From a virus: a stretch of DNA of 64,000 nt. Position 1 is the first letter of the stretch. Each line of letters starts with the position of its first letter. Shown one piece after another: positions 6,195 through 53,643 of this stretch. The translations under genes were made by a program, and so were the position numbers. The stretch covers positions 1 through 64,000 of the IMG/VR virus record IMGVR_UViG_3300045988_178965; one strand, given 5' to 3'. Below the pieces are notes generated by a model. That model was not told the origin of the DNA. It made no database searches and was given only the letters and a program-made list of their open reading frames with translations.

Positions 6195-8450
6195 ATGGCC
6201 ACATATCAACACTTACCAGGTGTAAACCTAGAGCTTCTGGATGGTAACCTTCGTCTTGACCAGACCGATAGCTCTCCTCGCGTACTTATTATCGGTCGCG
6301 CAGAAAAGGGTCTAACTAATGCACTGTATCCAGTAACTGACACCAACCGTGCAGCCGCTGTATTCGGTCAAGACTCTCCATTAATCCGTAAGATGTCAGA
6401 AGCTCTTATCGGCGGTGCCCGTAGAGTTTCTCTGTATCGTATTGGTGGTAAGCAAGCTAAACTGAAAAATATCTTCGGTAAAGACAGCTATCTTGCTGCA
6501 GTAGAGGCATCAGTATCAGCAGTAGACAATCTTAAAGTATACGTTGGTCCTCGTCCAAATAACGACGGTAAAGCATGTCTGATCGTATTTAAGGGCAACG
6601 AAATCGTATACTCTAACGTTCCAGGTTCAGAAATTAACCGTAACCAAGTAGAAGTATTTGGTTTTGACCCTGAGACTAAAGTTAAGATTGGTACACCAAC
6701 CGAACCAATCCCATTCTCTGAAGTTATCCTGAAAGAATACAGCCGCACTGCTAAGTTCGTTGGCAATGGTACTACTACCAAATTCAGCCTACCGGGCGTA
6801 ACAAAAACAGACGAAGTTACTGTTAAAAAATTAACTGTTGCTGGTCAAGATAAAAACTCTGGATCAGATTTCTCTGTAAAAATCGATAAAACTACATCTT
6901 CTCAGTATGTAGAGTTTACTACTGCTCCAGAGCAATCACAAGAAATTCAAGTTCTTTATTCATTCAAATCTACTGGTAAGGTTGCAGGTTCTGCAGTATT
7001 TATCGGTAACGGTACTAAAGATGAATTTGTTCTGCCAGGAACCAAGAAAACCTACGAAGTTACACTTGACGTAGTTAAAGTTGCCGGTCAAGATAAAACT
7101 GACACTGCGACTGCACAAGATGACAGCAACGGTTCTGATACCAAAACATTAAAATTGACCGAAGCTCCTAGCGAACAAAGTTCAGTGATCGTAGAATATA
7201 CCATCGACACTAAACGTGAAACCGTTGTTGGTGAGTATGAAGAGGGTGAAGATAACATCAACACCACTTGGAAAAACTACTACGAATTACTGCACACAGC
7301 TTTGGCTGAGTTGGAATCTGTTAACGCTATCTCTGTTGTAACCGACTACGCTGTAATTGATGCTCCAAACATCGCAGATGGTTCTAACGATCTTGATCGT
7401 CTGGACTACGTTTACGTTTCTGAAGATAACGGTGAGCTGAAATACGAATGGTCAACAGAAAAAGTTCTGTACCGTAAAAACCGCGGCACTGCTACCACTT
7501 CAGATCCTGCTGAAGCAGACATCAACGGTAATGGACAGCCAATTGTTCATAGACGTTACAACGAAGCAAACTTTGCACACCTGCTGGCTAACTTCGCTAA
7601 CACTATTTCTGAGAATGAACAATTCTGTCTAGTTACAATTGGTGCAACAATGCCACGTTCATTGTCTCAATACGAAGTTAACCGCTGGATTGGCTCTCCT
7701 GCAACTTATGATGCACTTGGAAACATCGTATCTAACGGTACAGGTCTGCTAGGACTGCGCAATATGGTTGAACGCGCTGACACACGTCGCGGCTTCTATA
7801 AAACCATTTCTGGCTTCGTAGACGGCGCTATTGTAACAGACTCTAACGGTGCACCAATTAATATTGGTAAATTCCTGTCTGTTGTTCCACAAGTAATCGT
7901 AACTCCATCTTACTCTTCTGCTGGTTCTAACACCATTGTTACTAACGGTGCAGCAGTTTATGCCGGTCTGATTACTACTATCGACGCCAGCGTATCTACT
8001 ACCAACATGTTGATCCCTCGTATCTCATTGCCAGGTGAAATCAAAAAACTGAAACTTGACCAACTAACCGGTGCAGGCTATGTCTTCTTCAAGACTACCA
8101 ACAACAGCGTTCGCGTAGTTTCAGGTGAACTGGCCACAACCGCCGATTCAGACTACCGTCTGCTTTCAACCACTATGGCTGTTGCTGAGGCATCTAACGC
8201 TGTACGTGATGTTGTTCAACCGTTCATCGGTCGTGGCTTGACAGAGGCGACTCTGGCTGCTGTTGACGTAGCTATTGAAGGCGCTCTGCAACGTCTGGTT
8301 GAGCAAGGACACATTGTAAAATATCTGCATGTAGTAAATCAACGTCCTATCGTTAATGGACGTGCAAGTCTGGACGTAGCTCTTACTATCGTTCCTGCAT
8401 TTGAACTGCGTGAGATTAACGTAGCCGTTAAACTGGCCCTAGAAATCTAA
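6195..8450 (+). CDS. tail sheath protein (751 aa) with a tandem internal domain duplication
   Basis: Lies directly upstream of the tube-family genes. The C-terminal region (GYVFF...SDYRLLST...VRDVVQPFIG...GALQRLVEQGHIVKY...NGRASLDVALTIVPAFELREINVAV) follows the pattern of sheath C-terminal domains recalled from T4 gp18-type proteins. Codon usage looks strongly expression-adapted (cgt/ctg/ggt/acc), unlike the neighbouring genes. Two insertion-domain repeats of about 72 aa at nt 6750-6965 and 6990-7205. Confidence 0.72.
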   Translation: MATYQHLPGVNLELLDGNLRLDQTDSSPRVLIIGRAEKGLTNALYPVTDTNRAAAVFGQDSPLIRKMSEALIGGARRVSLYRIGGKQAKLKNIFGKDSYLAAVEASVSAVDNLKVYVGPRPNNDGKACLIVFKGNEIVYSNVPGSEINRNQVEVFGFDPETKVKIGTPTEPIPFSEVILKEYSRTAKFVGNGTTTKFSLPGVTKTDEVTVKKLTVAGQDKNSGSDFSVKIDKTTSSQYVEFTTAPEQSQEIQVLYSFKSTGKVAGSAVFIGNGTKDEFVLPGTKKTYEVTLDVVKVAGQDKTDTATAQDDSNGSDTKTLKLTEAPSEQSSVIVEYTIDTKRETVVGEYEEGEDNINTTWKNYYELLHTALAELESVNAISVVTDYAVIDAPNIADGSNDLDRLDYVYVSEDNGELKYEWSTEKVLYRKNRGTATTSDPAEADINGNGQPIVHRRYNEANFAHLLANFANTISENEQFCLVTIGATMPRSLSQYEVNRWIGSPATYDALGNIVSNGTGLLGLRNMVERADTRRGFYKTISGFVDGAIVTDSNGAPINIGKFLSVVPQVIVTPSYSSAGSNTIVTNGAAVYAGLITTIDASVSTTNMLIPRISLPGEIKKLKLDQLTGAGYVFFKTTNNSVRVVSGELATTADSDYRLLSTTMAVAEASNAVRDVVQPFIGRGLTEATLAAVDVAIEGALQRLVEQGHIVKYLHVVNQRPIVNGRASLDVALTIVPAFELREINVAVKLALEI

Positions 8451-8456
8451 GATAAA

Positions 8457-8476
8457 GGAGGGGTGATAACCCCTCC
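8457..8476 (+). promoter_or_regulatory. GC-rich stem-loop between the sheath and tube genes
   Basis: GGAGGGG-tgataa-CCCCTCC, a 7-bp perfect stem, 7 nt after the sheath stop. It is followed by aaattaaat, not a clean U-tract. It could be a partial terminator or an mRNA-stabilising hairpin setting sheath:tube stoichiometry. Confidence 0.4.
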
Positions 8477-8495
8477 AAATTAAATCAGGAATATT

Positions 8496-9200
8496 ATGTC
8501 AGATTTTGTTACATATAATGCCACCACCTCTGGTGTAGATATTACACCTGTATTAGCTGGTAAGCCAATCGGCACCATGCAGATGATTTCATATCGTCTT
8601 GACCGTGAAAAAGTACCTATTCATACCATGGGTTCTCCAGATGCTCGTGCAATCGCTCGTGGTAAACGTACCTGTATGGGTTCTTGCGTATTCACAGTAT
8701 TTGACCGTGAAGCGTTATTTGATATTATGGATGAGATGGGTCGTTCAGATGTGTGGCTTGGTAAACATGAAACCGCAAACTATCGTCGTGGCGGTACTTA
8801 CAAACACATTAATAATGGCCAATATCAAGATGCTATCCCAGAAGCTGCTCGTAATGCTATCTATGGTTCAACCGATCCTAAAGCAAACAACGGCATTCGC
8901 GGTGGTGGTACATTGAATCCAGAGTATGGTAAACTGGACCTGAATACATCTCAAGGTATTCGTTCAGGCCTGCGCGACTTGACTAAAGCTCGTCTAGCAG
9001 ACCAAATCCTCCCATTTGATATCGTATTGGCTTCTACTAACGAATTCGGTAGCTCTACTAAGATGACAATCTACGGCGTAGAGTTCGTATCTGAATCCGG
9101 TGGTATTTCTATCGATGACTTAACCACAGAGAAACAATATTCATTTATTGCTCGCTCTGTATCTCCATGGGAACCGATGGATACCTTTAACTCTCGTTAA
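8496..9200 (+). CDS. tail tube protein (paralog 1 of 3)
   Basis: 234-aa ORF directly after the sheath gene, with the same highly biased codon usage. It shares two sequence blocks with the next two ORFs (..KVPIHTMGSPDARAIARGKRTCMGSCVF.. and ..ILPFDIVLASTNEFGSSTKMTIYGVEFVSESGGISIDDLTTEKQYSFIARSVSP). Confidence 0.65.
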   Translation: MSDFVTYNATTSGVDITPVLAGKPIGTMQMISYRLDREKVPIHTMGSPDARAIARGKRTCMGSCVFTVFDREALFDIMDEMGRSDVWLGKHETANYRRGGTYKHINNGQYQDAIPEAARNAIYGSTDPKANNGIRGGGTLNPEYGKLDLNTSQGIRSGLRDLTKARLADQILPFDIVLASTNEFGSSTKMTIYGVEFVSESGGISIDDLTTEKQYSFIARSVSPWEPMDTFNSR

Positions 9201-9230
9201 TACTTAAACTTATTCTCCTATAGGTGTAAT

Positions 9231-10631
9231 ATGCAAGATTACAAAAATCAGCCATTACACAAGGAAGAATATCATTCTGTGGGTGGCGATGCCACCCACA
9301 TTATTTTTAACTTCCCTGGATACGGCTATCTTTATATGGGCAGTCTTTTGTCGCTGTCCTACCAGATATTCAGAGACAAGGTCCCTGTATATAATTTGGG
9401 CAATACTAACATTGACGGATTCGCCATAGGCAAAAGATATGTGGCTGGGTCTATCGTTAAAACATCTTTCCTACATGACGACCTTCGCCAATTCATGCAA
9501 GATATCGCAGATGGTATTGGAATTAAAGAACCGGTCGATTCTATCTATCAATTAAAACTCGAAAAACAAAAGGCATATCATCACTTAATGGCGGATGACA
9601 TTTTGCCATTTGATATCATTATTCTTCTTAGTTCAGAATACGGAGGATTTTCCGTTTCAGAGGTTATCTATGGTGCAACTCTAATCAATTCTGGACAGGT
9701 TCATTCTATTCACGATCTTATTACTGAAAATACACTTTCATTTGTCGCTAGAGATGCTAGACAAACACGGAATAAAATTGGCAGCGTCGTATACGGCGAG
9801 GCTAAACATACAGGCGTAAAGGCATCACAGTTGTCTGGAGATTCCGTGAATTATAATAATAGCGATACATCATATTATTACGACAAATGGAATCAATCTG
9901 TAAACGACGCAGTCAAAAAGGGCACATGGTCACAAGACGAAATTAATCGAATCAACGCCTATTCTCAGCTTGCAGGTAATGGTACAAAAGCAGATGTGCC
10001 TCAAAGTTATATAGATGCAGCAAGAGAAGAGTATCGTAAACAGGGCGCAACAGATGCCCCAGATAGCACATCCGGTTCTAAGCCATCTGAGTATGATAGT
10101 AAATATATAGATAAGGCCTCGTTTAAATCAACAGCTCCTGGGTTTTTCGTTGATGACGGTGATACTGTATTTGTACACGCCAAAAATATAGATGGCTCAA
10201 ACTTCAAACAAGTACAGGAAGACGGCAATACCCACTTGCGTTTTATGGGTATCGACACTCCGGAAACTGACCATAATAAAGGTGATCATATAGACAGGGG
10301 TCAAGAGTACGGTTATGCCGCCAAAGATTTTTTAATTAAATATATAGCAGATGGCAGATGGGATAAGGATATTGACGACGGTGTGACAAAGATTACGGGC
10401 ACAGATGTATATGGCCGTAAATTGTTCTTCAATCCAAGATATGTCGAGGCTATCGTTGAGGCAGGTTTAGCATGGTTTAAACCAGAAGGTGCTAGACAGG
10501 CTGGTATGTCAGCAGAAGATATTAATAGGATTAAGAAGAAATATCATGATGCTAAAGCCAATAAGCGTGGGTTGTGGGGCGGCGAGAATATCGTAGATCC
10601 GGCAGCACATAGAAAAACTTGGAAGAAATAA
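9231..10631 (+). CDS. tail-tube-family paralog fused to a staphylococcal nuclease (SNase/thermonuclease) domain
   Basis: The N-terminal ~180 aa align by eye with the tube protein (KVPVYNLGNTNIDGFAIGKRYVAGSIV; ILPFDIIILLSSEYGGFSVSEVIYGATLINSGQVHSIHDLITENTLSFVARDARQ). The C-terminal aa ~303-455 (nt ~10137-10595) carry SNase hallmarks: DDGDTVFV, LRFMGIDTPET, EYGYAAKDFL, DVYGRKLFF, IVEAGLAW, KRGLWG. Confidence 0.8.
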   Translation: MQDYKNQPLHKEEYHSVGGDATHIIFNFPGYGYLYMGSLLSLSYQIFRDKVPVYNLGNTNIDGFAIGKRYVAGSIVKTSFLHDDLRQFMQDIADGIGIKEPVDSIYQLKLEKQKAYHHLMADDILPFDIIILLSSEYGGFSVSEVIYGATLINSGQVHSIHDLITENTLSFVARDARQTRNKIGSVVYGEAKHTGVKASQLSGDSVNYNNSDTSYYYDKWNQSVNDAVKKGTWSQDEINRINAYSQLAGNGTKADVPQSYIDAAREEYRKQGATDAPDSTSGSKPSEYDSKYIDKASFKSTAPGFFVDDGDTVFVHAKNIDGSNFKQVQEDGNTHLRFMGIDTPETDHNKGDHIDRGQEYGYAAKDFLIKYIADGRWDKDIDDGVTKITGTDVYGRKLFFNPRYVEAIVEAGLAWFKPEGARQAGMSAEDINRIKKKYHDAKANKRGLWGGENIVDPAAHRKTWKK

Positions 10632-11569
10632 TGGCTAAATCAAAATATAATATATCAAATACTAATGATGGTATTGTTGTATCTGTAGACGGCAATGTAG
10701 TTGACAATCAATCAAGAGAATATAATATAGGTCTTGAATATTCTTTAGCTAAAGAACTTTTGCCCGGGGCATCTGTTTCTGTAGATAAAATAGTTATAGA
10801 AAAGATGTACCCAAATATCAAGGATACAAGAAAAGGGTCTGTTGATTTCAAGCCAAAAGGCGTGCCAAAAGGTTCAAGCAAAGTAGACCCTGTTGATAAT
10901 ATGTCGGCTATCTCTTCAAAGGGTAGAGCTAGACCATATAACCCTAATCCAGGAGAAACAGACGCAGAAAGAGCTTTAGCTCATAAGAAAGTACAAACTG
11001 CATCATACGATGGACTGTATACAAAGTATTTCTCCTCTAGTGATTTTAATATATATATTGGCGACATTCTAATAGACAGAGCGGCCGGAATTGCTTTAAA
11101 TGAGACTCTAACAAGTACACCAATTTACACTATTGGTAATAGCAGATACGATTTTTTAGCCAGAGGCAATGTCCTAACAAATGGTATTATTAGAATCAAT
11201 AAGGCAGAGAAAGATTATCTAGCAAGAGTAATAGCTCATTACAGAGGAAGAACAAACGAGTTTAGAATCCTAAGTCCATATGAGCAAATACAATTAACAT
11301 CAGAAGAATTAGCCAAGTATAGAAAACAGTTAAAAGAATATCAAAACGAACAAGTATCAGCTAAATCCGTATTAGACTGGGCAGACCTAGGCACCTTTAC
11401 AATAAATATGGTATATAACAATTCTGATGCTGTTACAGAGGGTGTTCAACAACGCATATCTATTGTAGAATGTAGAATAGTTGGGTATGAACATTCAGTA
11501 GATATAGGCTCAGATGGCCAGTTAATTGATGGATATAAATTCATCGCTAAAGAGGTAATTCCAGAATGA
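10631..11569 (+). CDS. tail-tube-family paralog 3 (possible tube initiator or terminator)
   Basis: ATG at 10631 overlaps the upstream stop (TAATG); the track ORF begins at a TTG at 10619. It shares the tube blocks (TPIYTIGNSRYDFLARGNVLTNGIIRI; ISIVECRIVGYEHSVDIGSDGQLIDGYKFIAKEVIP). Confidence 0.55.
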   Translation: MAKSKYNISNTNDGIVVSVDGNVVDNQSREYNIGLEYSLAKELLPGASVSVDKIVIEKMYPNIKDTRKGSVDFKPKGVPKGSSKVDPVDNMSAISSKGRARPYNPNPGETDAERALAHKKVQTASYDGLYTKYFSSSDFNIYIGDILIDRAAGIALNETLTSTPIYTIGNSRYDFLARGNVLTNGIIRINKAEKDYLARVIAHYRGRTNEFRILSPYEQIQLTSEELAKYRKQLKEYQNEQVSAKSVLDWADLGTFTINMVYNNSDAVTEGVQQRISIVECRIVGYEHSVDIGSDGQLIDGYKFIAKEVIPE

Positions 11570-12051
11570 GAGTTGAAAAAATTGAAGGGTTAGAATCATT
11601 ACCACCAGATGATCTATCCCCTGACGAACACGAACAGTTGGCACAGGCCAAAGAAAGCGCTGAGGAAGAGCAAAAGGAACAGACGGATATTGATCTCCTT
11701 CTTAATGCTCTTTCTGATAAAGAAGATGCTCCAAAGGTTTATGATATTGAAGCATGGCTAGAAAAATACGGTACAATCCATGTATCATCAGTTCTAGGTG
11801 GTAAGGATATATTTATTTGGCGCGTATTAAGACGCCAGGAATATTCCAATATGATTAAACAGGGTATGATGGACAATGAGATTCGCGCAGAGGATTCTGT
11901 AGTTCGACGTTGCCTATTGTACCCAGAAGCAAAACAAGAGTTCCTAACCACTGCTCCTGCAGGTTTTATTTCTACATTAAAAGAGCAAATTATGTATCGC
12001 TCAGGATTCGTTCCACTGCAGCAAGCATATTCACAAATTAAGATCCTATAA
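11566..12051 (+). CDS. acidic small protein, putative tail assembly chaperone (by position)
   Basis: 161-aa ORF with an acidic N-terminus. One of two small genes immediately upstream of the tape-measure-like gene. ATGA overlap with the previous gene. Confidence 0.35.
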   Translation: MRVEKIEGLESLPPDDLSPDEHEQLAQAKESAEEEQKEQTDIDLLLNALSDKEDAPKVYDIEAWLEKYGTIHVSSVLGGKDIFIWRVLRRQEYSNMIKQGMMDNEIRAEDSVVRRCLLYPEAKQEFLTTAPAGFISTLKEQIMYRSGFVPLQQAYSQIKIL

Positions 12052-12581
12052 TGAGTGCATTAGATTTGAAGACGGGGACAGTCGTTATCCCCTTTAACAA
12101 CACCCCTATTCAAATCGAGGGGCGAATGTTTAAAAACCTATCAGTATTAGCTAGACTAATGTCTATGACTGAACTAGATAGGGCTATGCGCATTAACCTA
12201 GAAGATGCGGCAACCGAGGACGAATTATACGAAGAGATTTTTAAATCATGTGTAATAGATGTCCCCGGAATACCAAAAGGTGTAGACTACAATAATTCCT
12301 CAGCCGGATTTGTATCCACTGTTGGTAAAATTATTTTTATAAAGTCAAAAGAGTACGTGGAAGATCCATTCGGTGCATATGATAGAGCAGTAGAATCTGT
12401 ACCAATGGTAGAGGCAATGGCGGCCGTCATCTCTAGATTTCTAGGAATAAAATACACAGAAGCAAAATCTCTTCCTATTAATGACTTATTCGAAATGTAT
12501 GCGGCTTGTCACGTTGCATTTCCAAACGAAGTTGCTCCTATTGTTAAGCAAGAAGAAGAAAGAGGGGGTCCTCCAGTATGA
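12051..12581 (+). CDS. putative tail assembly chaperone (by position)
   Basis: 176-aa ORF with a TAATG overlap upstream and an ATGA overlap downstream. No slippery or frameshift signal recognised. Confidence 0.35.
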   Translation: MSALDLKTGTVVIPFNNTPIQIEGRMFKNLSVLARLMSMTELDRAMRINLEDAATEDELYEEIFKSCVIDVPGIPKGVDYNNSSAGFVSTVGKIIFIKSKEYVEDPFGAYDRAVESVPMVEAMAAVISRFLGIKYTEAKSLPINDLFEMYAACHVAFPNEVAPIVKQEEERGGPPV

Positions 12582-15500
12582 TAGCATCTAATTTAGGATG
12601 GTCCGCTATAAATGATTATAGGGATAGACAAGATAGCAGTATGGCTCATCGTAGAATACTGATGGACTCTCAGACTATCGAAGAAAATAAATCAGAACAG
12701 GAAGCCAGAGATATAGTCGGCTCTGTTATGAAATACGGGCTAACTCTTGAAGCTATAGTATTAGCCAATAAAGCTTTAAAAAACAAGGAAGTACAAAGAA
12801 AGGCTGAACGTTATGTAAAACTTAGCTATCTTGCTGACTCTATTAGGGGCACAAAGCAAGATGCTCTTAGCGTATTTGGCGGGGGGAAAGTTACCTTAGC
12901 AAACTTGTCTATGAACGTGGCAAGGGCGTTCGAGGAGCTTTCCCCTTTTTCTATTTTAAGAACATTTAATACTTCACATATATTGGCACCATTTGCAACA
13001 GCAGAATCTGAATTTGAATTCTCCTCTGACTTGTTAAAAGCGCAGAAAAGATACTTTAAATTTCTATCATCTAAATATGGTGAACGAGAATTAACGGATG
13101 CTGACTTTGAAGCCGGACTAAAATACTCTAAGGGCAAACTATTAGACGCGTCTGGCAATACGGTAATTCAAAATACAAGGTTAACACTAACTGAATTCGC
13201 CGGTACAGAGCCAGGACATACTGCTACATCAAATTATAATAAAATTCTACGCAGACATATAGCCGTAAATGAGGGTGCTTCATTTTTTGCGAAAAAAGAG
13301 ATTGGCGATCTTTCAAAAAGTGTTCCTGCTCATAATCCATTTACAATTATCGCAGCTGATAAAAATGCGAGTATAGGTAAGGAATGGATGAAGTCTGTTG
13401 TTGGACAAGCAGTAGCTCAAGGTTTCAATATGGTTAATGAGCCGCTTGGATTCTTAGAAGAGACTGGCGGTACATTAATAAATAGAGACTCCACCCTATT
13501 TAAGATGATTGGTAAATATGGGCGAATCAATCCCAATGCAACATCAGAATCAACAATCAAGGAATTAACAACTGGTTACGCAAAACACGGTATAGCAAAA
13601 ATGGCCGCTCTTGCGGCTGGCTATTATGCTTTAGACAATGCATCTAAGATAATAGGTACAGATAGCTCAGGATTTGGCCATGGCATATCAGAGGGATTGG
13701 CAACAACATTTCTTGGTGCTAAATTACTATATGCAGAAACAGTATCCGATAGATTCGAAGAGTATAGACAAGAGCAAGAATATGTTGCACCAGGCTCTAC
13801 CTCACTATTGAAATTAGCAGGTTTCCCTCTAGCCGGAGCAATGGCTGGCGGTACATTAGCATATGGTAGACGTACACTTCCTGCAGCAATTGCAAATGAT
13901 GGATACATTCGCTCAACAAGAGATGCCGCAAAAGAAAGCTTTATATTCGGACGAAGTGTAGCAACACTTGCAATTAATACGCCGGTCCAAGATGCATTAG
14001 CAGTCGGAACAAGAGCCAGAAGATTTGCAACAAGAGGCGCAGCAATAGGTGCATTATTTGCTTTACCATTCTTACCAGGTGCATTGATTGGCGAAAGTAG
14101 TGATGATATAAGGGCAGAATATCTTGAAGGAAAAGATGTAGCTATTCGTAAAAATAGAGGATGGTTCTCTTCTTCTACACCAATAGAAGGTGAAGGCGTA
14201 AAATACTTCACAAAAAACTGGTATCAAAGATTAATGGCCGACAATAAGGATAAAATCCTTTATGGTGACCAAGATACCAAAGAGGATTTAGATCCATTCC
14301 TTAGCCCATTCGACTACCTTAGAAATCCATACAGATTAGAAGAAATGCACCAAGAAGATATGCCATATCCTGTATGGGGCATGGACGTATCTATGGGTGG
14401 ATGGATTGGACGAGGTCTACAGATGGCATTTGGAGATGCTATCAAGCCGGACCTAATTAATCCAAGAATGAAAGCATTGACTGGAGAGTTACAAGGGTCT
14501 GGTGAGCCCGCAATAATCCCATCGCTATCAATAACCCAGAACGTTTCAAATAAACAAATGTCGCTTATAGGCGAGGGTAAAAGCACATATGGCGAACTCG
14601 CTAAGTATGACCCCAATACGGAGTCTGCGAACTATATCGTATCTTCCGGCCTAGACTTTATAGGTTTAAAAGGATGGGCAGCGTCTGGCGTTCTTAAAGA
14701 TTTTGGGTTAGGTATTCCGGAGTTAAAAACACAATATGCTCGATCAGGAGAAGCTACCAACGTAGCCAAAGAGTTTGAGGCACAGAACTTGGGTGGTATG
14801 CTTGGCGCAGCTGACGTAACAAGACGTATTATTCCGATGTCTGCCGATGTAACCGGAGAGCGATTCAATCCTTTGAGTAATACAGTCTCGCCAGAATGGT
14901 TGCCTAGTGGTGGTTACTTTAACGACTTTTCAAAGGGTGCATTTTGGGACAAAGTAGAAAACGGATACGATAGACTTCCCGGTAAGGGCTATGAAACATG
15001 GAATCCTGAACTATCTGGGGTTGATCCTAATGACTATCCTGATATACATAAATTCGAAATTTTATCAGATGTTGCATTTGGTAGTAATGAATACTACAAA
15101 ATGTATGAAAAGATGGAGGATTTATATAGGAGAAAAGTTGCTGGCGAAGAGACAGAAATGTCTGATGAGGATGCAGCAAGATTCGAAGAGATTTACATAC
15201 AGTCTCAGGAGCGTTCAAGAAAGAAAAGATTCTTCGAGTATAAAACAGAAGAAGAACTTGAAGGTGTTTCTATGTGGGGAAGAATGCTTGGCTCAATATG
15301 GGAAAGCACAACACATAATGCCGAGTTGTCAACCGAACGTTTAACATTCTTCCGTCCGGCCGGTAAGCTATTACATCAAAGGACAGCAATAGAGGACTAT
15401 GTAAAAACACAGCTATCAGAAGGTGACACTGCATTGTGGAATAAGCCATACGAACACTTTATAAGGCCGTTCGTAGAGGACTCATACAAATACATAGATT

Positions 15501-16348
15501 CTGAGCATGTTCCAGGATACATTCAAGAGCGTAGAAACGTTGACAATTATTTCGACGCACTTGAGTTCTACAAACAAATGCAAATCTATCGTAAGTCTGC
15601 TGGCGTAAATAACTACGAAGCTACAATGGCAAAAGAGAAAGCCAACAGGACAGTTTACGGTGCAGTTGCGTCAGGCCTTGATACAAGACAAGATGTAGAG
15701 TCTGCATATAGTGCACTATCAGATAATGAGAGGGCATACTTCTCATCATTTGTTAATGCAAAAGAATCGGACAGAAATAAGATATCAAGAATTGTTGACG
15801 GTAATAATATCTCTGATATGTACCGCATGTTGTGGGCTAGAAAAGACGCTATTGAAAACGGCGATGATATTTCTGCATTGATTCAGCAAGAAGAACAGGA
15901 TCTAATTGATAACAACCGGTCTGCATATTTAGCGTATAAAAATAGCAAAGACGCAGATATAGGAATCTCATTTAGAGAATACGTCCAAGAACTAAGAGCC
16001 GCATCTTTAATAGAAGAGGCAACAGGTATACCAACAGAAGATTTCTCTGGATGGGATCCGAGAATAGAAATTAAAGATGTAAAACTAAGGGCTCTTCAGT
16101 TGTCAAAAGAGGACGTTAGAGAATATGGATTCTGGCAGTCTGATGAAGACAATTTGGCTAGGCAATCATATCTTCTAAATGAAGATCAGGTAACAACACA
16201 ATTAGGCTCAATAAAAGAAACAAGAGCAAGACGAGAGTTTCAAGAATCACTATTAATAAAAGATCAGTTGATGAAAAGAGGAATATTTGCAAAAGATATC
16301 CGATTCTCAAACACTGGATTCAGTGATCAAAATATAAATATAGGTTAA
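12578..16348 (+). CDS. tape-measure-like protein (1256 aa)
   Basis: Large ORF after the two chaperone-position genes. Gly/Ala-rich hydrophobic stretches (e.g. KMAALAAGYYALDN, LAGFPLAGAMAGGTLAYG, RGAAIGALFALPFLPGALIG) and a long predicted-helical remainder, as is typical of tape measures. Confidence 0.5.
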   Translation: MIASNLGWSAINDYRDRQDSSMAHRRILMDSQTIEENKSEQEARDIVGSVMKYGLTLEAIVLANKALKNKEVQRKAERYVKLSYLADSIRGTKQDALSVFGGGKVTLANLSMNVARAFEELSPFSILRTFNTSHILAPFATAESEFEFSSDLLKAQKRYFKFLSSKYGERELTDADFEAGLKYSKGKLLDASGNTVIQNTRLTLTEFAGTEPGHTATSNYNKILRRHIAVNEGASFFAKKEIGDLSKSVPAHNPFTIIAADKNASIGKEWMKSVVGQAVAQGFNMVNEPLGFLEETGGTLINRDSTLFKMIGKYGRINPNATSESTIKELTTGYAKHGIAKMAALAAGYYALDNASKIIGTDSSGFGHGISEGLATTFLGAKLLYAETVSDRFEEYRQEQEYVAPGSTSLLKLAGFPLAGAMAGGTLAYGRRTLPAAIANDGYIRSTRDAAKESFIFGRSVATLAINTPVQDALAVGTRARRFATRGAAIGALFALPFLPGALIGESSDDIRAEYLEGKDVAIRKNRGWFSSSTPIEGEGVKYFTKNWYQRLMADNKDKILYGDQDTKEDLDPFLSPFDYLRNPYRLEEMHQEDMPYPVWGMDVSMGGWIGRGLQMAFGDAIKPDLINPRMKALTGELQGSGEPAIIPSLSITQNVSNKQMSLIGEGKSTYGELAKYDPNTESANYIVSSGLDFIGLKGWAASGVLKDFGLGIPELKTQYARSGEATNVAKEFEAQNLGGMLGAADVTRRIIPMSADVTGERFNPLSNTVSPEWLPSGGYFNDFSKGAFWDKVENGYDRLPGKGYETWNPELSGVDPNDYPDIHKFEILSDVAFGSNEYYKMYEKMEDLYRRKVAGEETEMSDEDAARFEEIYIQSQERSRKKRFFEYKTEEELEGVSMWGRMLGSIWESTTHNAELSTERLTFFRPAGKLLHQRTAIEDYVKTQLSEGDTALWNKPYEHFIRPFVEDSYKYIDSEHVPGYIQERRNVDNYFDALEFYKQMQIYRKSAGVNNYEATMAKEKANRTVYGAVASGLDTRQDVESAYSALSDNERAYFSSFVNAKESDRNKISRIVDGNNISDMYRMLWARKDAIENGDDISALIQQEEQDLIDNNRSAYLAYKNSKDADIGISFREYVQELRAASLIEEATGIPTEDFSGWDPRIEIKDVKLRALQLSKEDVREYGFWQSDEDNLARQSYLLNEDQVTTQLGSIKETRARREFQESLLIKDQLMKRGIFAKDIRFSNTGFSDQNINIG

Positions 16349-21361: not shown

Positions 21362-24300
21362 ATGGCAAGATTTACTTTTTCTATCAACGGAATGCTAGAT
21401 TTAGAACCGATCTCATTCGATAAGGTTGATAAATTTTATACAACCCAACACGAATTCCTAAGAGATACCTCGGTTCTATCTTCTAAATCCAGATATAGCG
21501 AGATGCTTCATCTTGCCACATTCGCATTTGATGTTTCAGATGCAAAAGAGGTAGAGAAGCTTAAAACCCTGATAGCTATCTGTAATTCATTTCCATACGT
21601 ATTTATCAGATCAGATGCAATTATTGAAAACCATCTGATGCCTTTAAATCTAGCCATAGGTTCTGGGTACTATATGTATGCACTGCATGAATTCCAGGCA
21701 GAAATGTCATCGACAGATGCAGACCAGGGCGTAGTTACCGTATCCTTAAGATTGCAGATGGTTAACTGGAAGCCGCTGGCTAAAAGTATCAAATTTATCT
21801 CTATTGAAGAGGGCGCAGAGGTTAAAACTAAATCAGGAAAAGTTAGGAATATCTCTGAATATAATGGAGAAGAGGGTGACAGCGTAGTATCTACCGGAAG
21901 CTATGTTAAGTATGTTGACAATCCAGAAGAGTCAAACATTCTTAACTTTATGGTTGAAAAGAACCTTAGCGATGACATTGAAGCTATCCTTAATTCTGGA
22001 CTAAGCCGCTCATTTGAGTTTAATCTTGGATGGCCTCTAGTTATGACAGACTTACAGTTTGATGGAAGATCAAAATCAGATTTCTGCTGGAATCTTGTTA
22101 GACAATTTAGGGTATTAAAAACTGTAGACCTAGACGGATCATTGCAGACAAAAGACGGCAAGAAAACATCACAATCAAACATCTCCGAAGTAACAGAGGA
22201 AAATGTAGAGCGTTATGATGAAACCGGAAGAATTTGGGTTGGCTACGTCAGAGAAAGACTGGCTGGAACAAATGTCAAAGATGGAGACGTAGCGTTGCAG
22301 TCTATAACTGTAAGACGCAGAAATAGATTTGCAAATCAAACGGTTCAAGGGTTTGTATATCCATATGCACAATATTTAGGCCGCTCACCATCAGAAGTTT
22401 TAATTACAACAGCAGTTAATCATACAAAAGGTATGGCATCAACAACGGCTATGCAAGCAGTAAAAAAAGCCGATGAGATGACCAACTATGTCAGAGTCTC
22501 AACACCTGCATTGAAAGGACTTGATGTTCTAGCCATAGAGAATCCATTAGTAAATGGTCTCGGTATTAAATATGCAGTTCTAGACTCATCTCATGCAACC
22601 ACTTCTGGTTCACTAAATAATCTTTTAATAAACAACTTTACATTTATAGAGTCTGACTCTTATGGTGCAATAGAATCCAGCAGGTATGCTCTGGCATCAT
22701 CCGTTAATGGATGGAATGATTCAGCAAATAAAGCACAACGTCTTATTGAAGTTATAGGACAATACAAGGCTCTTAAAAAAGACGGCTCTAGCACATCAGA
22801 ATACGACACTATTATCTCTGTTATCAATAACCGCTTAATTGATGCGTTAAATAGGACAGCTAAGTCTGAATTTCCAGAAGCCAAATCTTTGCAAGAATCC
22901 GATGTTTTCAAAAAGGCAGATGCAACACAAAAATCTGTATATATAATTCAACTATATATGCAGCTAATCTCAGCAAATACCGCATCAGGCTCTGAAGAAA
23001 GAATAACGTTAGAGCGTGTAAGACTACTGGACTCAGAAATAGAATCGCTGTATTTTGAGACCATTACAAACCTTAATCCAATAACAATCAAGGCGCTAAA
23101 AGAAGACCTTCAAAAAGAGAAGAATTGGATTGAAAAGATGGAGGGAAACTATACATCGTTTAACGGTGAAGGTATTCCTGACCTAAAAATAAAAGAAATA
23201 TTTGGAGGTTTAACTCCTACAAAAGAGTATAAAAGCTGGAGAGATTTATCGTCATTCCCATTTATATATGACCAAGGAATTCTTTCTCCAGATAAAGTAG
23301 TAGCGTTTTGGGATGAAAAACTTCCCGAGATTAATAGTCTGCTCGAGGCCACTGGCGCGTTGATAAAAACTGACCTTAATATTTATACTACTGCTCCGGC
23401 CATGAATGACGCTGGTGGTAACTCAACCACTGGTGCATCTGTTATGGTTCAAGATCCTTCTGGCGGAACATCGCCAAAAGGAAAAGCCGATGTGAAATTA
23501 GTCTATACCCGAGAACAATATGAGCGCGATTATAAAGTGAGCACCGGGTCTAATAAAAGACTCTTGCCACTTGAAAACATAGTTGCCTATACAAGACTAG
23601 GTAGAGACTTGCAAAACTTCGGTGGAAGGCATATGGGTTTAGATATGCCAGTACCGGTAGGAACTCCTGTACGTGTTGCCGACGATGGTGTTGTATCAGT
23701 AGCCAAATTTCAGATGAATAAAAATGGTAAGCGCGGATACGGTAACGTAATATACGTTAAGCATGCAAATGGTATTGAAACCAGATATGCCCACTTAAGC
23801 AGAATTCTTGTAAGAGAGGGTTCTCGTGTCGGAAGAGGTCAGGTTATTGGTCTATCAGGTAATACTGGTGGGTCTACAGGTCCGCACTTACATTACGAAA
23901 TAAGAATAAATGGCAAGGTAATTAGCCCTAAAGCATACTATGGTAAAACCACGAATGGTCCAACATCAATAGCAACATCTAGCAAGACGAATTCCTCTTA
24001 TTCTGCTGCAGCATATGCAAGAGGCGGCTCAAAGGCACGCTCAGGCATTATGACCTTAAAAGAGTTTATTGCAGCAGGAGAGAGCGGCGGAAGTTATGAT
24101 ATTGCCAACTGGTATACCGGTAGGAAATTAAATTCTGGCAATAAGGGGTTATCAAACAAGACGATTGCCCAAGTTATGGCTATGCAAAATGCAGGTCAGC
24201 TTCATGCTGTAGGTAAATACCAAACGATACCTGTAACATTAAGGGCTGCTGTACAAGGACTTCGCCTAAATGGTAATACTCCGTTCTCTCCATCAGTGCA

Positions 24301-27256
24301 GGAAAAAATCGGCACATGGCTAATTTTCAATAAACGCCCAGCGCTTGGTGCATACATTAGAGGTGAAAGCAACGATTTAGACAAGGCTCACAAAGAGTTT
24401 GCATTGGAATGGAGATCAATTCCTATGCCTGATGGACGTTCTGCAAGTTCAAGCGGCGATAAAGTTCATTCCGGATATACTCCAGAAAGAGTTAGACAAG
24501 CCTTACTCGCAGCAAGAGCTTCATACGTTAAATCATTGTCTAGTGGCAAATCCAAAGAGCAGGCACAAGAAGAGGCTGTTGCGTCAACAGCTTTAGCAAG
24601 AGTTGCTTCCGGTGAGAATGTATCAGATGTTGCAAATAGCTATATCAACGAGCTATACGCAGGAAGAGAAAAAGATCCTATTGAGGCAGTTGTAGACCCA
24701 GTACCATGGACAGAAGAAATCCAGGCTAAATCTAGACTAGAGAATTTCGTCAAGGATCTTAATAGGGGTATTCAAAAATTAATACCGACATATAAGGTTT
24801 ACATGGTTCACGGTAATGACGAAAATAGTTTAATTAATTTAATCAATTATCGTCAACATGCATCATACTATGAAGTTCCTGCAGTTAGAAATATTAGAGT
24901 TGAAATGGCAAATCAGGATAACCCAGTTGCCGTTGCAACATTCGAAGTATTAAACGCTCTGAATACAGCATCTGACCCTAAAGAAATCAGAACATTAAAG
25001 TCTGAGAATATAGATATACGCTCTCTAAATTCTGACGCTGCTAGAATAGTTGCGATGGACCAAATTAGACTTAAAGCTGGTAACAAGATTCAGATTAGAA
25101 TGGGTTATGGAAACGACCCAAATAAACTATCCGTTGTATTCAACGGCATAGTAACAGAGTCTGACGGCGGCGAAGTTCTAACAATCGTTGCAGAGGGTTA
25201 TGGTAGAGAATTACAAAACGAGCAACTCTTCATTGGAGACGTAGTTCCAACATTCTCATTCCTATCAGATATCGATAACCTATATATATCCGCAGCCGTT
25301 GCCAAAGTTCTTAAATCTGCTAATCTAGATAGTTTCGGCAGAAACCCTAGATGGTTTGCAGACAATAATGACTTTAGAGACGTAAGAGGTATGAGCAATG
25401 AAACAGCGGCATCAACTCTTGTCGGTGATAGTGGCATAGGATTTAGTAATTCTCTTTGGAACTCCCAACTAGACGAATACTTCTTCTACTCTGCTAAAGG
25501 TGCAACAGAAAGTCTGGAAAACTTCTGGTTAATGAACGTAGATATGGCAGACAGGTTCTTCGTGACAAGTCTAAAAGATCTATTCCCATTTTCGTTGAAT
25601 GACTTCTTCTCAAACTTTAATGTCGTCAATAAGACTGTTTGGGACGTTCTAACAACAGGAAGAAGAATGTTTCCTTCATCTATTCTTCTTGTTAAGAATA
25701 TAGAGGGACGTTCAACAACCTTCTCTGGCATTAAAGAGCAAATGATGATAGGCAAAGAAAAGCCAACATCATTAGCCGCAGAGTTTTTATCAAAAATACA
25801 GAAGAAAGCTGATTTCAAGAAAGAAGCAAACGAGGCACTTGCAGGAGACACAACTGGCATTGGTAATTCATATGTAGAAAATAATATGAAAGACAAAATC
25901 AATGTCATAGGCGAGCAGACATTAAAATCTAATGGCTCAGATGTAATAGACCTATTGGATGCCGCAAATGCGGATAAATACGTGGATGTTTCATCATATG
26001 TTCCGGCAACCAATTTCCATATGTTTAACAGTTCTTATAATCTGATTTCTAATCAATTGAAATTAGATCAAAACTGCATAACAGGTGCTAAAGTTGAATA
26101 TAACGGCGATCCAGAGGATTTTGGATACGGAGAAAATATATTCGATATGAAGGCAAATGGTGGGCTAAAGGGTTCACTCGCTAAATTTGGATATATCAAT
26201 GACAACTCTATTAGCTCTGTAGGAATGGCAATTAAAACTGCTCAAGGTTATCTATTAGAAGAATTAGAGAAAATGTATAACGGTGCAGTTATTGTCACTG
26301 GAAATCCAGATATACAACCTGGTGATTATGCATTTATCCAAGATGATCTTAGAAATATGTCTGGCGTAATTAAATGTCGTGAAGTTCAACATGTATTTAC
26401 AGAGTATGATGGCTATGTGACAATTATTACACCAGGTATGTTTGTAGAACCATCAACACATATGTATTCAAATCTATACATGAAACTTGGCATATTCATG
26501 AATTTTGTGTCTACAGCAGCATCAGAGTATGCTCAGGTATCCAGTGCAGAAACAATTCCTGGACTTATCTATGAACAAACCGCATTCCAGCCTACTGATC
26601 TTGGTGCATCTGTGTATCTGCTTGGAGTTGGTAACGTTGCCGTTGGTGGACTGACAGGCGCATTCGTATATAGCTCTGCTAGTCGTATAGCTGGTGGTTC
26701 TTTAATAAGTAGAGCATCAAGTGGTTTAAGTCTTGCTGCTAGGGCCGGAAAAGCTGTCGCTGGTGCTGGTTGGGTTCGCTCTTTGGCACACACAGCAATG
26801 GCATTCGGTTCTTCGGTTGGGTCTAAAACACTACAGGCGCTACCAAGAGTTGCAAGAGTAATCTCAGCAGTACGTGGAGTTGTAGCCGGTGGTAGGGCAG
26901 TAGCAACAGCCGCTATGGGATTTGCAGCTGGTGGGTTTATTGCAACAGCAGCGGTCTCAGCACTTTTGGTAGTTTTAGTTTATGGTGCATTGGCAATGGT
27001 TCAGAATTTAATTGAATCATATGCACTCAAACTTGAAATGAGACACAGGGCACTTATGAAGTTTCCAGTAAAAGTATATGGACAAGAATATACGGCTGGT
27101 CTCATAGGATGGAATGATACAGAGACACCATTAGGATTGCAGATAGAGACAGTAAAAGAAACTATTAGGGCTTTAGGCGACATCAACGAGGCTACAACTA
27201 GGGCCGGATATGATGGTTCCCCATATGCCTTATACTTTAAATTAGCTACGGATTAA
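21362..27256 (+). CDS. multidomain tail hub/lysin protein (1964 aa): M23 peptidase, lysozyme/transglycosylase-like domain, hub-like region and hydrophobic C-terminus
   Basis: M23 motifs: GGRHMGLD (H757) ... YGNVIYVKHANGIETRYAHL ... GPHLHYEI (H842/H844), nt ~23564-23941. Next, AAGESGGSYD...AVGKYQTIP (nt ~24044-24490), resembling E-S...G-x-Y-Q peptidoglycan glycosidase domains of tail proteins. Later, IRLKAGNKIQIRMGYGN...FNGIVTE and VTGNPDIQPGDYAFIQD resemble gpD/gp27-type hub proteins. Gly/Ala-rich transmembrane-like segments lie near the C-terminus. Confidence 0.7.
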   Translation: MARFTFSINGMLDLEPISFDKVDKFYTTQHEFLRDTSVLSSKSRYSEMLHLATFAFDVSDAKEVEKLKTLIAICNSFPYVFIRSDAIIENHLMPLNLAIGSGYYMYALHEFQAEMSSTDADQGVVTVSLRLQMVNWKPLAKSIKFISIEEGAEVKTKSGKVRNISEYNGEEGDSVVSTGSYVKYVDNPEESNILNFMVEKNLSDDIEAILNSGLSRSFEFNLGWPLVMTDLQFDGRSKSDFCWNLVRQFRVLKTVDLDGSLQTKDGKKTSQSNISEVTEENVERYDETGRIWVGYVRERLAGTNVKDGDVALQSITVRRRNRFANQTVQGFVYPYAQYLGRSPSEVLITTAVNHTKGMASTTAMQAVKKADEMTNYVRVSTPALKGLDVLAIENPLVNGLGIKYAVLDSSHATTSGSLNNLLINNFTFIESDSYGAIESSRYALASSVNGWNDSANKAQRLIEVIGQYKALKKDGSSTSEYDTIISVINNRLIDALNRTAKSEFPEAKSLQESDVFKKADATQKSVYIIQLYMQLISANTASGSEERITLERVRLLDSEIESLYFETITNLNPITIKALKEDLQKEKNWIEKMEGNYTSFNGEGIPDLKIKEIFGGLTPTKEYKSWRDLSSFPFIYDQGILSPDKVVAFWDEKLPEINSLLEATGALIKTDLNIYTTAPAMNDAGGNSTTGASVMVQDPSGGTSPKGKADVKLVYTREQYERDYKVSTGSNKRLLPLENIVAYTRLGRDLQNFGGRHMGLDMPVPVGTPVRVADDGVVSVAKFQMNKNGKRGYGNVIYVKHANGIETRYAHLSRILVREGSRVGRGQVIGLSGNTGGSTGPHLHYEIRINGKVISPKAYYGKTTNGPTSIATSSKTNSSYSAAAYARGGSKARSGIMTLKEFIAAGESGGSYDIANWYTGRKLNSGNKGLSNKTIAQVMAMQNAGQLHAVGKYQTIPVTLRAAVQGLRLNGNTPFSPSVQEKIGTWLIFNKRPALGAYIRGESNDLDKAHKEFALEWRSIPMPDGRSASSSGDKVHSGYTPERVRQALLAARASYVKSLSSGKSKEQAQEEAVASTALARVASGENVSDVANSYINELYAGREKDPIEAVVDPVPWTEEIQAKSRLENFVKDLNRGIQKLIPTYKVYMVHGNDENSLINLINYRQHASYYEVPAVRNIRVEMANQDNPVAVATFEVLNALNTASDPKEIRTLKSENIDIRSLNSDAARIVAMDQIRLKAGNKIQIRMGYGNDPNKLSVVFNGIVTESDGGEVLTIVAEGYGRELQNEQLFIGDVVPTFSFLSDIDNLYISAAVAKVLKSANLDSFGRNPRWFADNNDFRDVRGMSNETAASTLVGDSGIGFSNSLWNSQLDEYFFYSAKGATESLENFWLMNVDMADRFFVTSLKDLFPFSLNDFFSNFNVVNKTVWDVLTTGRRMFPSSILLVKNIEGRSTTFSGIKEQMMIGKEKPTSLAAEFLSKIQKKADFKKEANEALAGDTTGIGNSYVENNMKDKINVIGEQTLKSNGSDVIDLLDAANADKYVDVSSYVPATNFHMFNSSYNLISNQLKLDQNCITGAKVEYNGDPEDFGYGENIFDMKANGGLKGSLAKFGYINDNSISSVGMAIKTAQGYLLEELEKMYNGAVIVTGNPDIQPGDYAFIQDDLRNMSGVIKCREVQHVFTEYDGYVTIITPGMFVEPSTHMYSNLYMKLGIFMNFVSTAASEYAQVSSAETIPGLIYEQTAFQPTDLGASVYLLGVGNVAVGGLTGAFVYSSASRIAGGSLISRASSGLSLAARAGKAVAGAGWVRSLAHTAMAFGSSVGSKTLQALPRVARVISAVRGVVAGGRAVATAAMGFAAGGFIATAAVSALLVVLVYGALAMVQNLIESYALKLEMRHRALMKFPVKVYGQEYTAGLIGWNDTETPLGLQIETVKETIRALGDINEATTRAGYDGSPYALYFKLATD

Positions 27257-31871: not shown

Positions 31872-33303
31872 TATAAAAGTTGGATCTAGGGCTGGTATAT
31901 CAGAAGAGTATAAAAATCCTGCACTAAGACTTTCAGAAATAGACGACAACAGGAGTGTTATACTAGAAACATACACGTCTGTTGGATCTGTTTCCAAGTT
32001 CGGGTGGGAGTCTGAGTTAATATTATTTGACGAATTTGGAAAGATGAGCTCTGGATCGATGTCATTTTTAAAAGACAATAGTTCAGTTTCAGCTACGAAT
32101 GGGTATGGATTTATTCCAACTAGTAATAAAATAAGACTAAAGTCGTATGTACCAGTTTCTGCATCTATCTATAAAAGAGGCCCCTCATCTGACTCTGTTT
32201 ATATAAAATATGGCAACAGTAAAGACCATAAATACTATGTCACAACAACAAGGGTTGGAGAGTTGGACCACATAGAGGAAGACTCCCATAATCATGGTAT
32301 AAACCTAGAAGAGGCCGGTGAACTTGCAATTGAAATCTCTCATATTACAATTGACGGAGAGAAAACAAAAATTTCATCGGATAAGGTTATAAAACTGGAT
32401 TACTACCCTGTTGCCAATGTAAGTATCGATGGCTCTACCGATTACATTGTCAATGAGTATTCTGGGATCGTTATAAATAAATCCGGAGCAGAGTTAACCA
32501 TTAGGTATAGTTTAGCGCCACTGGTAATTGTTCATAACGGACCAGCCGTATATACAGACGCAATAGATCCTTCGATTGTTTTAAACTTATTAGAGATAAA
32601 TAACAAGTCGGAAGACAATATCGTCTCTAGCGGCAATACAATAACCTCTAAAGTAAACTTCTTTTTAGAAGCATCAGGGACTATCGATATCAATGGTGTT
32701 GTATATTATCCTGGCAAAAGGCATATCCTTTCTCCTGGTCAGTATACTTTAAATCCTGCAAGTTCAGAGTGGACAAGAGAGGCTCTATCAAAAATAGGCG
32801 AATCTGATATAACTGTCATCAATGATATTAAGTCGAAGCTATTAAGCAGATATAAAGCAGGCGGCGCAAATCCAATATCATATAATAGCGTAGCAAATGG
32901 CGATGTGTATAAAGCAAAAGATAATCCACAGTCTGGTATTTATTCGCTTGAAGTAGTGGTAGATGATAAAGATAGAAGAATTATTCTTCCTTATTTGACA
33001 GATAAGAATTCGATATCTATTGTTAGGATCGGTCATAGAAATTCAAGAACAGAAGTTGCAGACTATGATAAAGATGATGCAGGCACAATAAAGCTCAATT
33101 CAAGTGGAAGATATATTATTAAATATACTCCAATAAAGGAAGATGAATGGGTAGAGTCAAATTCTAATATACTCAATTCAATAGTAGCTGCATTAGGAAC
33201 GCCGCAAAGAGAAGTAGAAATATATTACGGAACCGAAGAAAACGGCTCCATCGAGTATTTGAATATAGCTAACCCTATCACTATAGGTAATAACAATGGA
33301 TAA
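31840..33303 (+). CDS. hypothetical tail protein
   Basis: 487-aa ORF. The ATG at 31852, preceded by GGAAAAG, is an equally plausible start. Confidence 0.5.
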   Translation: MEKIMPTLTYDIKVGSRAGISEEYKNPALRLSEIDDNRSVILETYTSVGSVSKFGWESELILFDEFGKMSSGSMSFLKDNSSVSATNGYGFIPTSNKIRLKSYVPVSASIYKRGPSSDSVYIKYGNSKDHKYYVTTTRVGELDHIEEDSHNHGINLEEAGELAIEISHITIDGEKTKISSDKVIKLDYYPVANVSIDGSTDYIVNEYSGIVINKSGAELTIRYSLAPLVIVHNGPAVYTDAIDPSIVLNLLEINNKSEDNIVSSGNTITSKVNFFLEASGTIDINGVVYYPGKRHILSPGQYTLNPASSEWTREALSKIGESDITVINDIKSKLLSRYKAGGANPISYNSVANGDVYKAKDNPQSGIYSLEVVVDDKDRRIILPYLTDKNSISIVRIGHRNSRTEVADYDKDDAGTIKLNSSGRYIIKYTPIKEDEWVESNSNILNSIVAALGTPQREVEIYYGTEENGSIEYLNIANPITIGNNNG

Positions 33304-45489: not shown

Positions 45490-45528
45490 GTCCGAACTAT
45501 CTAAACGTATATAAAGGTAATATATAAA

Positions 45529-53618: not shown

Positions 53619-53643
53619 AGACTTTTTCCTAATAATGTAGGGA

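Follow-up and report, generated by a model that had tools for sequence, protein, structure and literature searches.

A tail-tube paralog carrying a conserved staphylococcal nuclease domain in a clade of metagenomic phages

We analyzed a 64,000-nucleotide (nt) stretch of viral DNA, positions 1 to 64,000 of IMG/VR record IMGVR_UViG_3300045988_178965 (hereafter the window), and describe a gene at 9231..10631 whose 466-amino acid (aa) product joins a tail-tube fold to a staphylococcal nuclease (SNase) domain. Because a tube-paralog anchor is joined to an SNase domain with all catalytic residues, the virus particle probably carries a DNA- or RNA-cutting enzyme on its tail. Our preferred reading, which we hold at a probability of about 0.5, is that the protein is a minor component of the contractile tail whose ring in the tube probably lies at the baseplate end and would expose a nuclease dependent on Ca2+ to the cell envelope, not to the DNA channel. 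The parts themselves are securely identified; the tail location and the substrate are what we infer. Below, tube1 is the adjacent upstream tube protein, tube2 the fusion protein (the target) and its counterparts, and tube3 the product of the next gene.

Tube-fold domain, linker and nuclease domain of the fusion protein

The 466-aa open reading frame (ORF) is preceded by a ribosome-binding site (AGGTG just 5' of it), and its TAA stop shares bases with the ATG of the next gene (TAATG). The protein has three parts, a tube-fold domain (aa ~12-178), a linker of ~126 aa and an SNase domain (aa ~305-461). The features of the gene are as follows.

9231..10631, + strand: tube2-SNase fusion, whole gene (466-aa ORF; same architecture in 69 full-length homologs)
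9231..9764, + strand: N-terminal tail-tube-fold domain (N-domain), aa 1-178, core aa 12-178 (hhalign, AlphaFold2 (AF2), Foldseek)
9765..10142, + strand: linker, aa 179-304, predicted helical, hypervariable in sequence and conserved in length
10143..10613, + strand: SNase (thermonuclease, PF00565) domain, aa 305-461 (Pfam, PDB profile, AF2, Foldseek)
10155..10166, + strand: DGDT motif D309-T312, equivalent to SNase D19-T22, with D311 as the Ca2+ ligand Asp21
10236..10265, + strand: LRFMGIDTPE, with R337 = R35, D342 = D40, T343 = T41 and E345 = E43
10410..10418, + strand: YGR, Y394-R396, with Y394 = Y85, G395 = G86 and R396 = R87
10130..10430, + strand: divergence hotspot in the SNase domain (beta1-beta3, the omega-type loop after the PE motif, helix 1)

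The N-domain aligned with the adjacent 234-aa protein in two collinear BLASTP blocks (2e-10 and 7e-09), and profile-profile comparison of the two families by hhalign gave a probability of 99.5% (E 3.7e-23, aa 11-177 against tube1 aa 4-223). By these alignments, the N-domain is paralogous to tube1. Neither Pfam nor NCBIfam returned a named tube family for it, and because a search of PDB sequences with the tube1-family profile gave no tube match, we made the tube assignment by fold comparison. The N-domain was poorly modelled in the full-length AF2 prediction (predicted local distance difference test, pLDDT, 35-60). Remodelled alone (aa 1-200) from a 78-sequence alignment spanning both paralog families, it had a core with pLDDT 70-83, in which strands 32-54 and 61-78 form a long beta-hairpin of the lumen-lining type. 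Such a long hairpin is typical of tube proteins. Foldseek with this model returned 67 PDB matches at E<=1e-3, and 50/50 among the matches listed were tube-fold proteins of phages, phage-tail-like particles and the type VI secretion system (Hcp). They include HFTV1, phage 812, PVC Pvc1/Pvc5, AFP, lambda gpV, SPP1, T4 gp19 and Hcp, with TM-scores to the target of 0.23-0.61. The target thus has both the beta-hairpin fold and a gene beside sheath and tube genes in a tail module, and the tube-fold assignment of the modelled N-domain is sound. In the Bacillus phage vB_BceM_WH1 (WH1), gp100 and gp101 are both annotated 'virion structural protein', an indirect sign that the target may be part of the virion.

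Both tube paralogs (8496..9764 in the window) also matched phrog_9206, labelled 'major head protein', only over the tube domain of its 501-position profile. We suspect a mis-annotation, which could be passed on to other records.

The C-terminal domain was identified by several routes. Pfam PF00565 scored 39.2 bits, above its cutoff of 21 (E 1e-9), a profile built from 31 homologs matched S. aureus nuclease structures in the PDB at 1e-14, and AF2 modelled the domain with pLDDT 80-94 and an SNase-like order of strands and helices. Foldseek matched this model to the SN domains of SND1/Tudor-SN (4e-5) and to an SNase variant (1e-3). The initial annotation had called the gene a fusion of a tube paralog and an SNase, and the hhalign, Foldseek and Pfam results together bear this out for both halves, well beyond chance. 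We dropped an identity as NucI, as the NCBIfam equivalog scored 21.5, far below its threshold of 250.

To map residues, the target and S. aureus SNase were both aligned to the family profile. All motifs that had been listed from the sequence at the outset (DGDT, LRFMGIDTPE, YGR, GLA and GLW) map as claimed: the Ca2+ ligands (equivalents of Asp21, Asp40 and Thr41) and the catalytic residues (Arg35, Glu43 and Arg87) are all present, G412-L-A corresponds to SNase G107-L-A, and W449 to W140. The homologs retain them. D309, D311 and T312 are unchanged in 69/69, as are R337, D342, P344 and E345, with T or A at position 343, where Thr41 ligates Ca2+ via its backbone carbonyl. The YGR motif is kept at Y in 68/69, G in 68/69 and R in 69/69 homologs, G412 in 69/69 and W449 in 67/69. 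Conservation of the catalytic residues, which the initial annotation had named as a point on which its claim could fail, therefore holds across the 69 homologs with T41 (T/A) and Y85 (68/69) as exceptions. In distant homologs, the remainder of the SNase domain falls to 25-48% identity and the active-site residues are kept. A single-sequence phmmer alignment had pointed to NIDGSN as the Asp21 motif, which would give Ser for Asp21; we took DGDT instead, because DGDT is invariant across the 69 homologs and NIDGSN lies within a loop insertion of variable length. The conservation pattern favours an active enzyme.

The linker and the nuclease domain differ from the anchor in how they evolve. AF2 placed helices at 213-230, 235-247 and 258-272 of the linker, with low pLDDT, and the linker is 11-87% identical to those of the homologs at a length of 110-140 aa throughout. 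Compared with the closest relative (contig L006), the tube2 N-domain is 100% identical, the linker 87% and the SNase domain 69%, and the other proteins of the tail module are 92-100% identical; in this comparison, the SNase domain evolves faster than any other part of the tail module. The DNA identity to L006 at nt 10130-10430 is 53-63%, the minimum over 13 kb, where the background is 75-97% (mostly 80-95%), and the catalytic residues within this hotspot are the same in L006. In the more distant L002, the tube2 N-domain is 79% identical, compared with 52% for tube1 and 58% for the sheath. A constrained anchor with a fast-changing or recombining cargo would be the pattern of a host-interface protein. 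The hotspot itself looks like an allele replacement around a constant active site.

Homologs of the fusion form 69 clusters at 90% identity, which are 33-96% identical to the target, and several of these clusters hold >100 member sequences. Hence, the clade is abundant in metagenomes, not rare. It consists of widespread phages of ~170-190 kb, with relatives found in human metagenomes, one of them from a Human Microbiome Project sample. The NCBI entry for the protein of that relative reads 'MAG TPA: nuclease-like protein [Caudoviricetes sp.]', and this label and the PHROG 'major head protein' mask the structural nature of the protein. The exact target protein is present on two independent 187,712-bp assemblies (L004 and L005) at different offsets; because the two contigs start at different points, they suggest a complete genome that is circularly permuted or terminally redundant. 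A megablast search of GenBank phages with 8400..10700 gave no match, hence none of them is close at the DNA level. In tblastn of the target against GenBank phages, the N-domain alone matched, in the Bacillus jumbo myophages WH1 and Edson only, the sole relatives that have been isolated, and the SNase domain used alone gave nothing at E<=0.01. A query of the homologous proteins with the SNase domain alone also gave none, which we ascribe to word-index failure since full-length homologs exist. No further SNase copies were found in the 64-kb window.

The C-terminal slot of tube2 and the tail module

We searched for relatives of the anchor using HMMER and the N-domain alone against 1.84 billion representatives, counting clusters at 50% identity. 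The N-domain family comprises 1530 clusters at E<=1e-3, of which 576 reach E<=1e-10, and lengths among the best 150 of the 1530 clusters range from 75 to 960 aa. Pfam analysis of 71 long tube2-family members identified PG_binding_1 in 35, Cadherin-like domains in 4, SH3_3 and CarboxypepD_reg in 3 each, SLH, PG_binding_3, Phage_lysozyme and Big_1 in 1 apiece, and SNase in none. SNase cargo is present in 4/150 of the best clusters, namely the four closest, and in 0/146 of the others. Judging from these domain assignments, the C-terminus of tube2 is an evolutionary swap site mostly filled by cell-envelope modules, and SNase is a clade-specific cargo in a slot that is otherwise mostly envelope-directed. 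The fusion had been described as uncommon. This stands insofar as SNase occurs in one clade, the 4/150 best clusters; it does not stand for the clade, which is abundant (69 clusters), nor for C-terminal fusions on tube2, which are common.

On a 207-kb contig (L003, 10001..12564), tube2 (592 aa) and tube3 (260 aa) each carry PG_binding_1 at the same locus; the tube2 cargo there possibly also includes SH3. Another contig (L008, 8001..9197) encodes a 398-aa tube2 with an extension that has no Pfam match. A 213-aa member of the P0025 cluster (410 contigs) was considered as a split or truncated form and proved to be a tube3 homolog, a clustering artefact.

The genes surrounding the target form a contractile-tail module.

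6195..8450, + strand: tail sheath, 751 aa (phrog_16991 1.3e-64; WH1 gp102 5e-17)
8496..9200, + strand: tube1, 234 aa, following the sheath (WH1 gp101 ortholog 8e-40; 65 homologs)
10631..11569, + strand: tube3, 312 aa, tube-like at aa ~129-312 (hhalign against the tube1 family 94.6%, E 6.7e-8; WH1 gp099 8e-9)
11566..12581, + strand: two tail-assembly-chaperone-like genes, 161 and 176 aa (WH1 matches or position)
12578..16348, + strand: tape-measure-like protein, 1256 aa (WH1 gp096, the giant gene after the chaperonins, 2e-16)

Since the 312-aa protein is also tube-like, the module has three consecutive tube-fold genes. The 161-aa protein matched the WH1 'tail chaperonins' gp098 (3e-8) and gp097 (1e-7), and the 176-aa gene, whose best WH1 match of 0.25 (gp097) is not significant, was assigned by position alone. 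The order sheath, tube1, tube2, tube3, chaperones, tape-measure protein (TMP) is found in the window and in L001-L009, including metagenomic relatives down to 33% identity (L002, L006, L007 and L009) and L004. WH1 keeps the same order, with gp102 (sheath), gp101, gp100 (190 aa), gp099 (246 aa), gp098/gp097 and gp096. The N-domain of the target matches gp100 (4e-21) and gp101 (1e-21) about equally well, and we therefore based the orthology to gp100 on gene order. No other tube-like gene was found in the window by a tube hidden Markov model or single-sequence hhalign, the latter being insensitive (tube3 itself reached only 20% with a single sequence).

Several further observations concern this module and the rest of the window. 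Tube3 has a 125-aa N-terminal extension. In L009, which carries P0069, the 1618-aa protein at the tape-measure position (11213..16069) matches Intein_splicing (PF14890), which would make it an intein in a tape measure gene. A hub-like 1964-aa protein (21362..27256, +) has a Peptidase_M23 domain at aa 756-856 and resembles the wall-degrading hub gp147 of 0305phi8-36. A second M23 peptidase of 269 aa (52905..53714, -) may be an endolysin. Likely tail fibre or receptor-binding components are a 1350-aa protein (33296..37348, +) with a bactofilin-like stretch at aa 736-814 and an 875-aa protein (40210..42837, +) with a borderline F5/8 type C domain. Two adjoining collagen triple-helix repeat proteins of 304 and 438 aa (44575..46845, +), probably fibre proteins, coincide with the GC maximum of the window (0.44). 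The small subunit of ribonucleotide reductase seems split (58632..61462, -), with its N-terminal part in a 539-aa ORF (59843..61462) and its C-terminal part in a 149-aa ORF (58632..59081); an HNH_3 endonuclease ORF (59229..59750) between the halves suggests an intron- or intein-type insertion.

Proposed location and function of the nuclease

We propose that the N-domain would assemble into a single hexameric ring that continues the tube. The protein would be a minor component, because an outward extension of 290 aa per subunit could not fit under the sheath. The ring would most likely sit at the baseplate end, like tube-initiator or first-ring proteins elsewhere; we favour this end because of the ring position of the minor tube paralog Afp5/Pvc5 of extracellular contractile injection systems (eCIS), the layout of the phage 812 initiator and the wall-binding cargo in relatives. 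Afp5/Pvc5 forms a baseplate-proximal ring in eCIS. The phage 812 tube initiator gp113 has an N-terminal beta-barrel and a C-terminal helical handle along the hub, and, together with the peptidoglycan-cutting hub, it is carried across the wall at the tip of the tube (PMC13433997). In the AF2 model, the target shares this layout, with a tube domain (aa 12-178) and a helical linker leaving the barrel. The linker of ~126 aa could hold six nuclease copies outside the tube wall. With the ring most likely at the baseplate end, the nuclease would work not in the cytoplasm but at the host envelope or within it, either before contraction or as the tip pierces the wall, and its likely substrate would be matrix- or surface-bound nucleic acid that hinders access. 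SNase enzymes require Ca2+ far above cytoplasmic levels. A need for millimolar Ca2+ would keep the nuclease silent in the cytoplasm during assembly, so that the phage's own DNA would be spared. The M23 domain on the hub-like 1964-aa protein and the SNase domain on the hub of BtI1, discussed below, fit this envelope picture.

Several points weigh against our preferred reading. The tube fold alone cannot discriminate between a major tube protein, an initiator and a terminator. The genes of classical tube initiators usually follow the tape measure gene and do not adjoin the tube gene. The target gene lies 5' of the chaperones and TMP, and not downstream of TMP among baseplate genes, and for this reason we do not count it among the classical initiators, though it may act as one. 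Part of the nucleotide pocket differs from that of S. aureus SNase in the alignment, with K84 replaced by V393, Y113 by P418 and Y115 by G420 in a loop whose alignment is uncertain. The substrate preference may therefore differ, and the aromatic residues W415 and F416 close by may compensate. A scan of GTDB genomes with the family alignment was empty and gave no clue to the host. The proposed role also has no experimental precedent, as a 2022 review stated that no phage actively degrading extracellular DNA (eDNA) had been reported (PMC9145820).

The nuclease was initially placed at or inside the DNA conduit, from where it would either follow the genome into the cell and degrade DNA of the host or a competitor, or process phage genome ends. 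The intact and conserved catalytic residues would suit such a function. A ring at the tip may also reach the membrane or cytoplasm; the authors of the phage 812 study leave undecided whether core proteins are retained there during membrane penetration (PMC13433997). Host nucleic acid may be attacked at injection, provided that the ring is carried at the tip of the tube. We nevertheless consider a channel location unlikely. C-terminal additions to tube folds are outside the channel in solved tails (PMC13433997). The same holds for lambda gpV. Six 290-aa extensions are too big for a lumen of ~4 nm that also holds the tape measure. The nuclease is covalently tied to a ring-forming fold, the Ca2+ it would need as an SNase is far above cytoplasmic concentrations, and a non-specific nuclease in the conduit would endanger the phage's own DNA. 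Envelope cargo, foremost peptidoglycan-binding modules, occupies the slot in relatives. The same geometry, together with the PG_binding_1, SH3_3, SLH and lysozyme cargo, disfavours genome-end processing. The cargo bears likewise on whether the ring could be head-proximal, a terminator or collar whose nucleases decorate the neck rather than the baseplate. Tube-fold terminators exist, the Foldseek matches include neck or cap complexes of phage 812, AFP and PVC, and the gene adjoins the tube gene and not baseplate genes. Peptidoglycan-binding, SLH and lysozyme modules suit the cell-proximal end better, and the Afp5/Pvc5 ring of eCIS is baseplate-proximal; a neck position thus appears improbable to us.

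Other alternatives concern the chemistry rather than the place. The SNase domain could be a non-enzymatic OB-fold that binds nucleic acid or another polyanion or serves as a baseplate building block, as many SNase-fold domains are non-catalytic, including those of Tudor-SN/SND1, the top Foldseek matches here. The slot is mostly filled by binding domains, and K84, Y113 and Y115 of the pocket are not kept. However, non-catalytic SN domains have lost their Ca2+-binding and catalytic residues, whereas here D311, R337, D342, E345 and R396 are present in 69/69 homologs and the active site is invariant even where the remaining domain falls to 25-48% identity, and we would be surprised if the domain were not an enzyme. 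Alternatively, the enzyme could be a phosphodiesterase acting on teichoic acids or a phosphodiester-linked capsule, and not on nucleic acid, alongside the M23 domain of the hub in wall penetration. The cell-wall modules that otherwise occupy the slot, the pocket residues unlike those of S. aureus SNase, the fast-evolving loops around the active site and the Peptidase_M23 domain of the hub-like 1964-aa protein would agree with such a substrate. Among SNase-family enzymes, we know of none that cuts phosphodiesters in teichoic acid or capsule; we regard this option as very unlikely.

A broader and more tentative version of our preferred reading, rather doubtful in our view, is that tube2 could serve at the tube tip as a general platform for display, with cargo swapped according to the host envelope. 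Here, the cargo would be an active SNase-type phosphodiesterase that is kept safe during assembly by its dependence on extracellular Ca2+ and takes part in an arms race with the host, the latter suggested by the fast evolution of the active-site loops. If true, it would be the first depolymerase known to be carried on a virion that attacks nucleic acid, either eDNA or RNA of the matrix or wall, or else wall polymers linked by phosphodiesters. To our knowledge, the virion-borne enzymes described so far cut peptidoglycan or polysaccharide. An intact nuclease mounted on the tail in a widespread clade would represent a new class among entry enzymes and would also be a candidate anti-biofilm reagent. 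The family also bears on the puzzling function of the second and third tube proteins in phage G and 0305phi8-36-like phages: the envelope-directed C-terminal modules predicted across the family suggest that they are adaptor rings carrying cargo.

Comparison with known systems

The target shares with S. aureus nuclease the fold, the Ca2+ ligands D21/D40/T41, the catalytic residues R35/E43/R87, Y85, G107-L-A and W140. In contrast to that enzyme, its SNase domain is fused via the 126-aa linker to a virion tube-fold domain and is found without the context of a signal peptide. Its beta2-beta3 loop contains 12 inserted residues, its omega-type loop is longer, and it has a conserved motif, G-x-W-D-x-D (aa 375-380), that SNase does not have; K84, Y113 and Y115 are not conserved in the alignment.

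The anchor has its closest counterparts in the second tube paralogs of Bacillus jumbo myophages, gp100 of the 0305phi8-36-like WH1 and gp179/gp180 of phage G, which are encoded at the same place in a syntenic module, after the tube gene and before the chaperones. WH1 gp100 has 190 aa and no C-terminal extension, whereas the target adds a linker and an enzyme domain. Phage G has two tube candidates at this position, and the role of the second was called unknown by the authors (PMC8570332). The tube initiators of phage 812 (gp113), pyocin R2, E217 and Pam3 and eCIS Afp5/Pvc5 likewise combine an N-terminal tube barrel with a C-terminal helical extension, and they form one hexameric ring between hub and tube that is carried on the tip through the wall (PMC13433997). 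Their extensions are short structural handles without an enzyme, and their genes usually follow TMP; the target belongs with them by layout only.

A precedent for the cargo comes from within this wider phage lineage. The baseplate hub homologue of BtI1, which is related to 0305phi8-36, carries an SNase domain whose purpose was given as unknown (Hardies et al. 2007, PMC2147016). There too, the domain is on a tail-tip structural protein, but it is N-terminal on a gp27-like hub and not C-terminal on a tube paralog. This remark on the BtI1 hub is all that we found in the searched literature, in which neither a tube-SNase fusion nor a virion-borne thermonuclease was described. Tail lysozymes, M23 hub domains and tailspike depolymerases are likewise enzymes on tail structural proteins that show modular swapping and fast evolution; they cut peptidoglycan or polysaccharide, whereas the module of the target is predicted to cut nucleic acid, and the searched literature describes no nucleic-acid-cutting module in such a role. 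Overall, tail structural proteins that bear an added enzyme are known, and what is unusual here is the SNase cargo, within a little-noticed pattern of cargo-bearing second tube paralogs.

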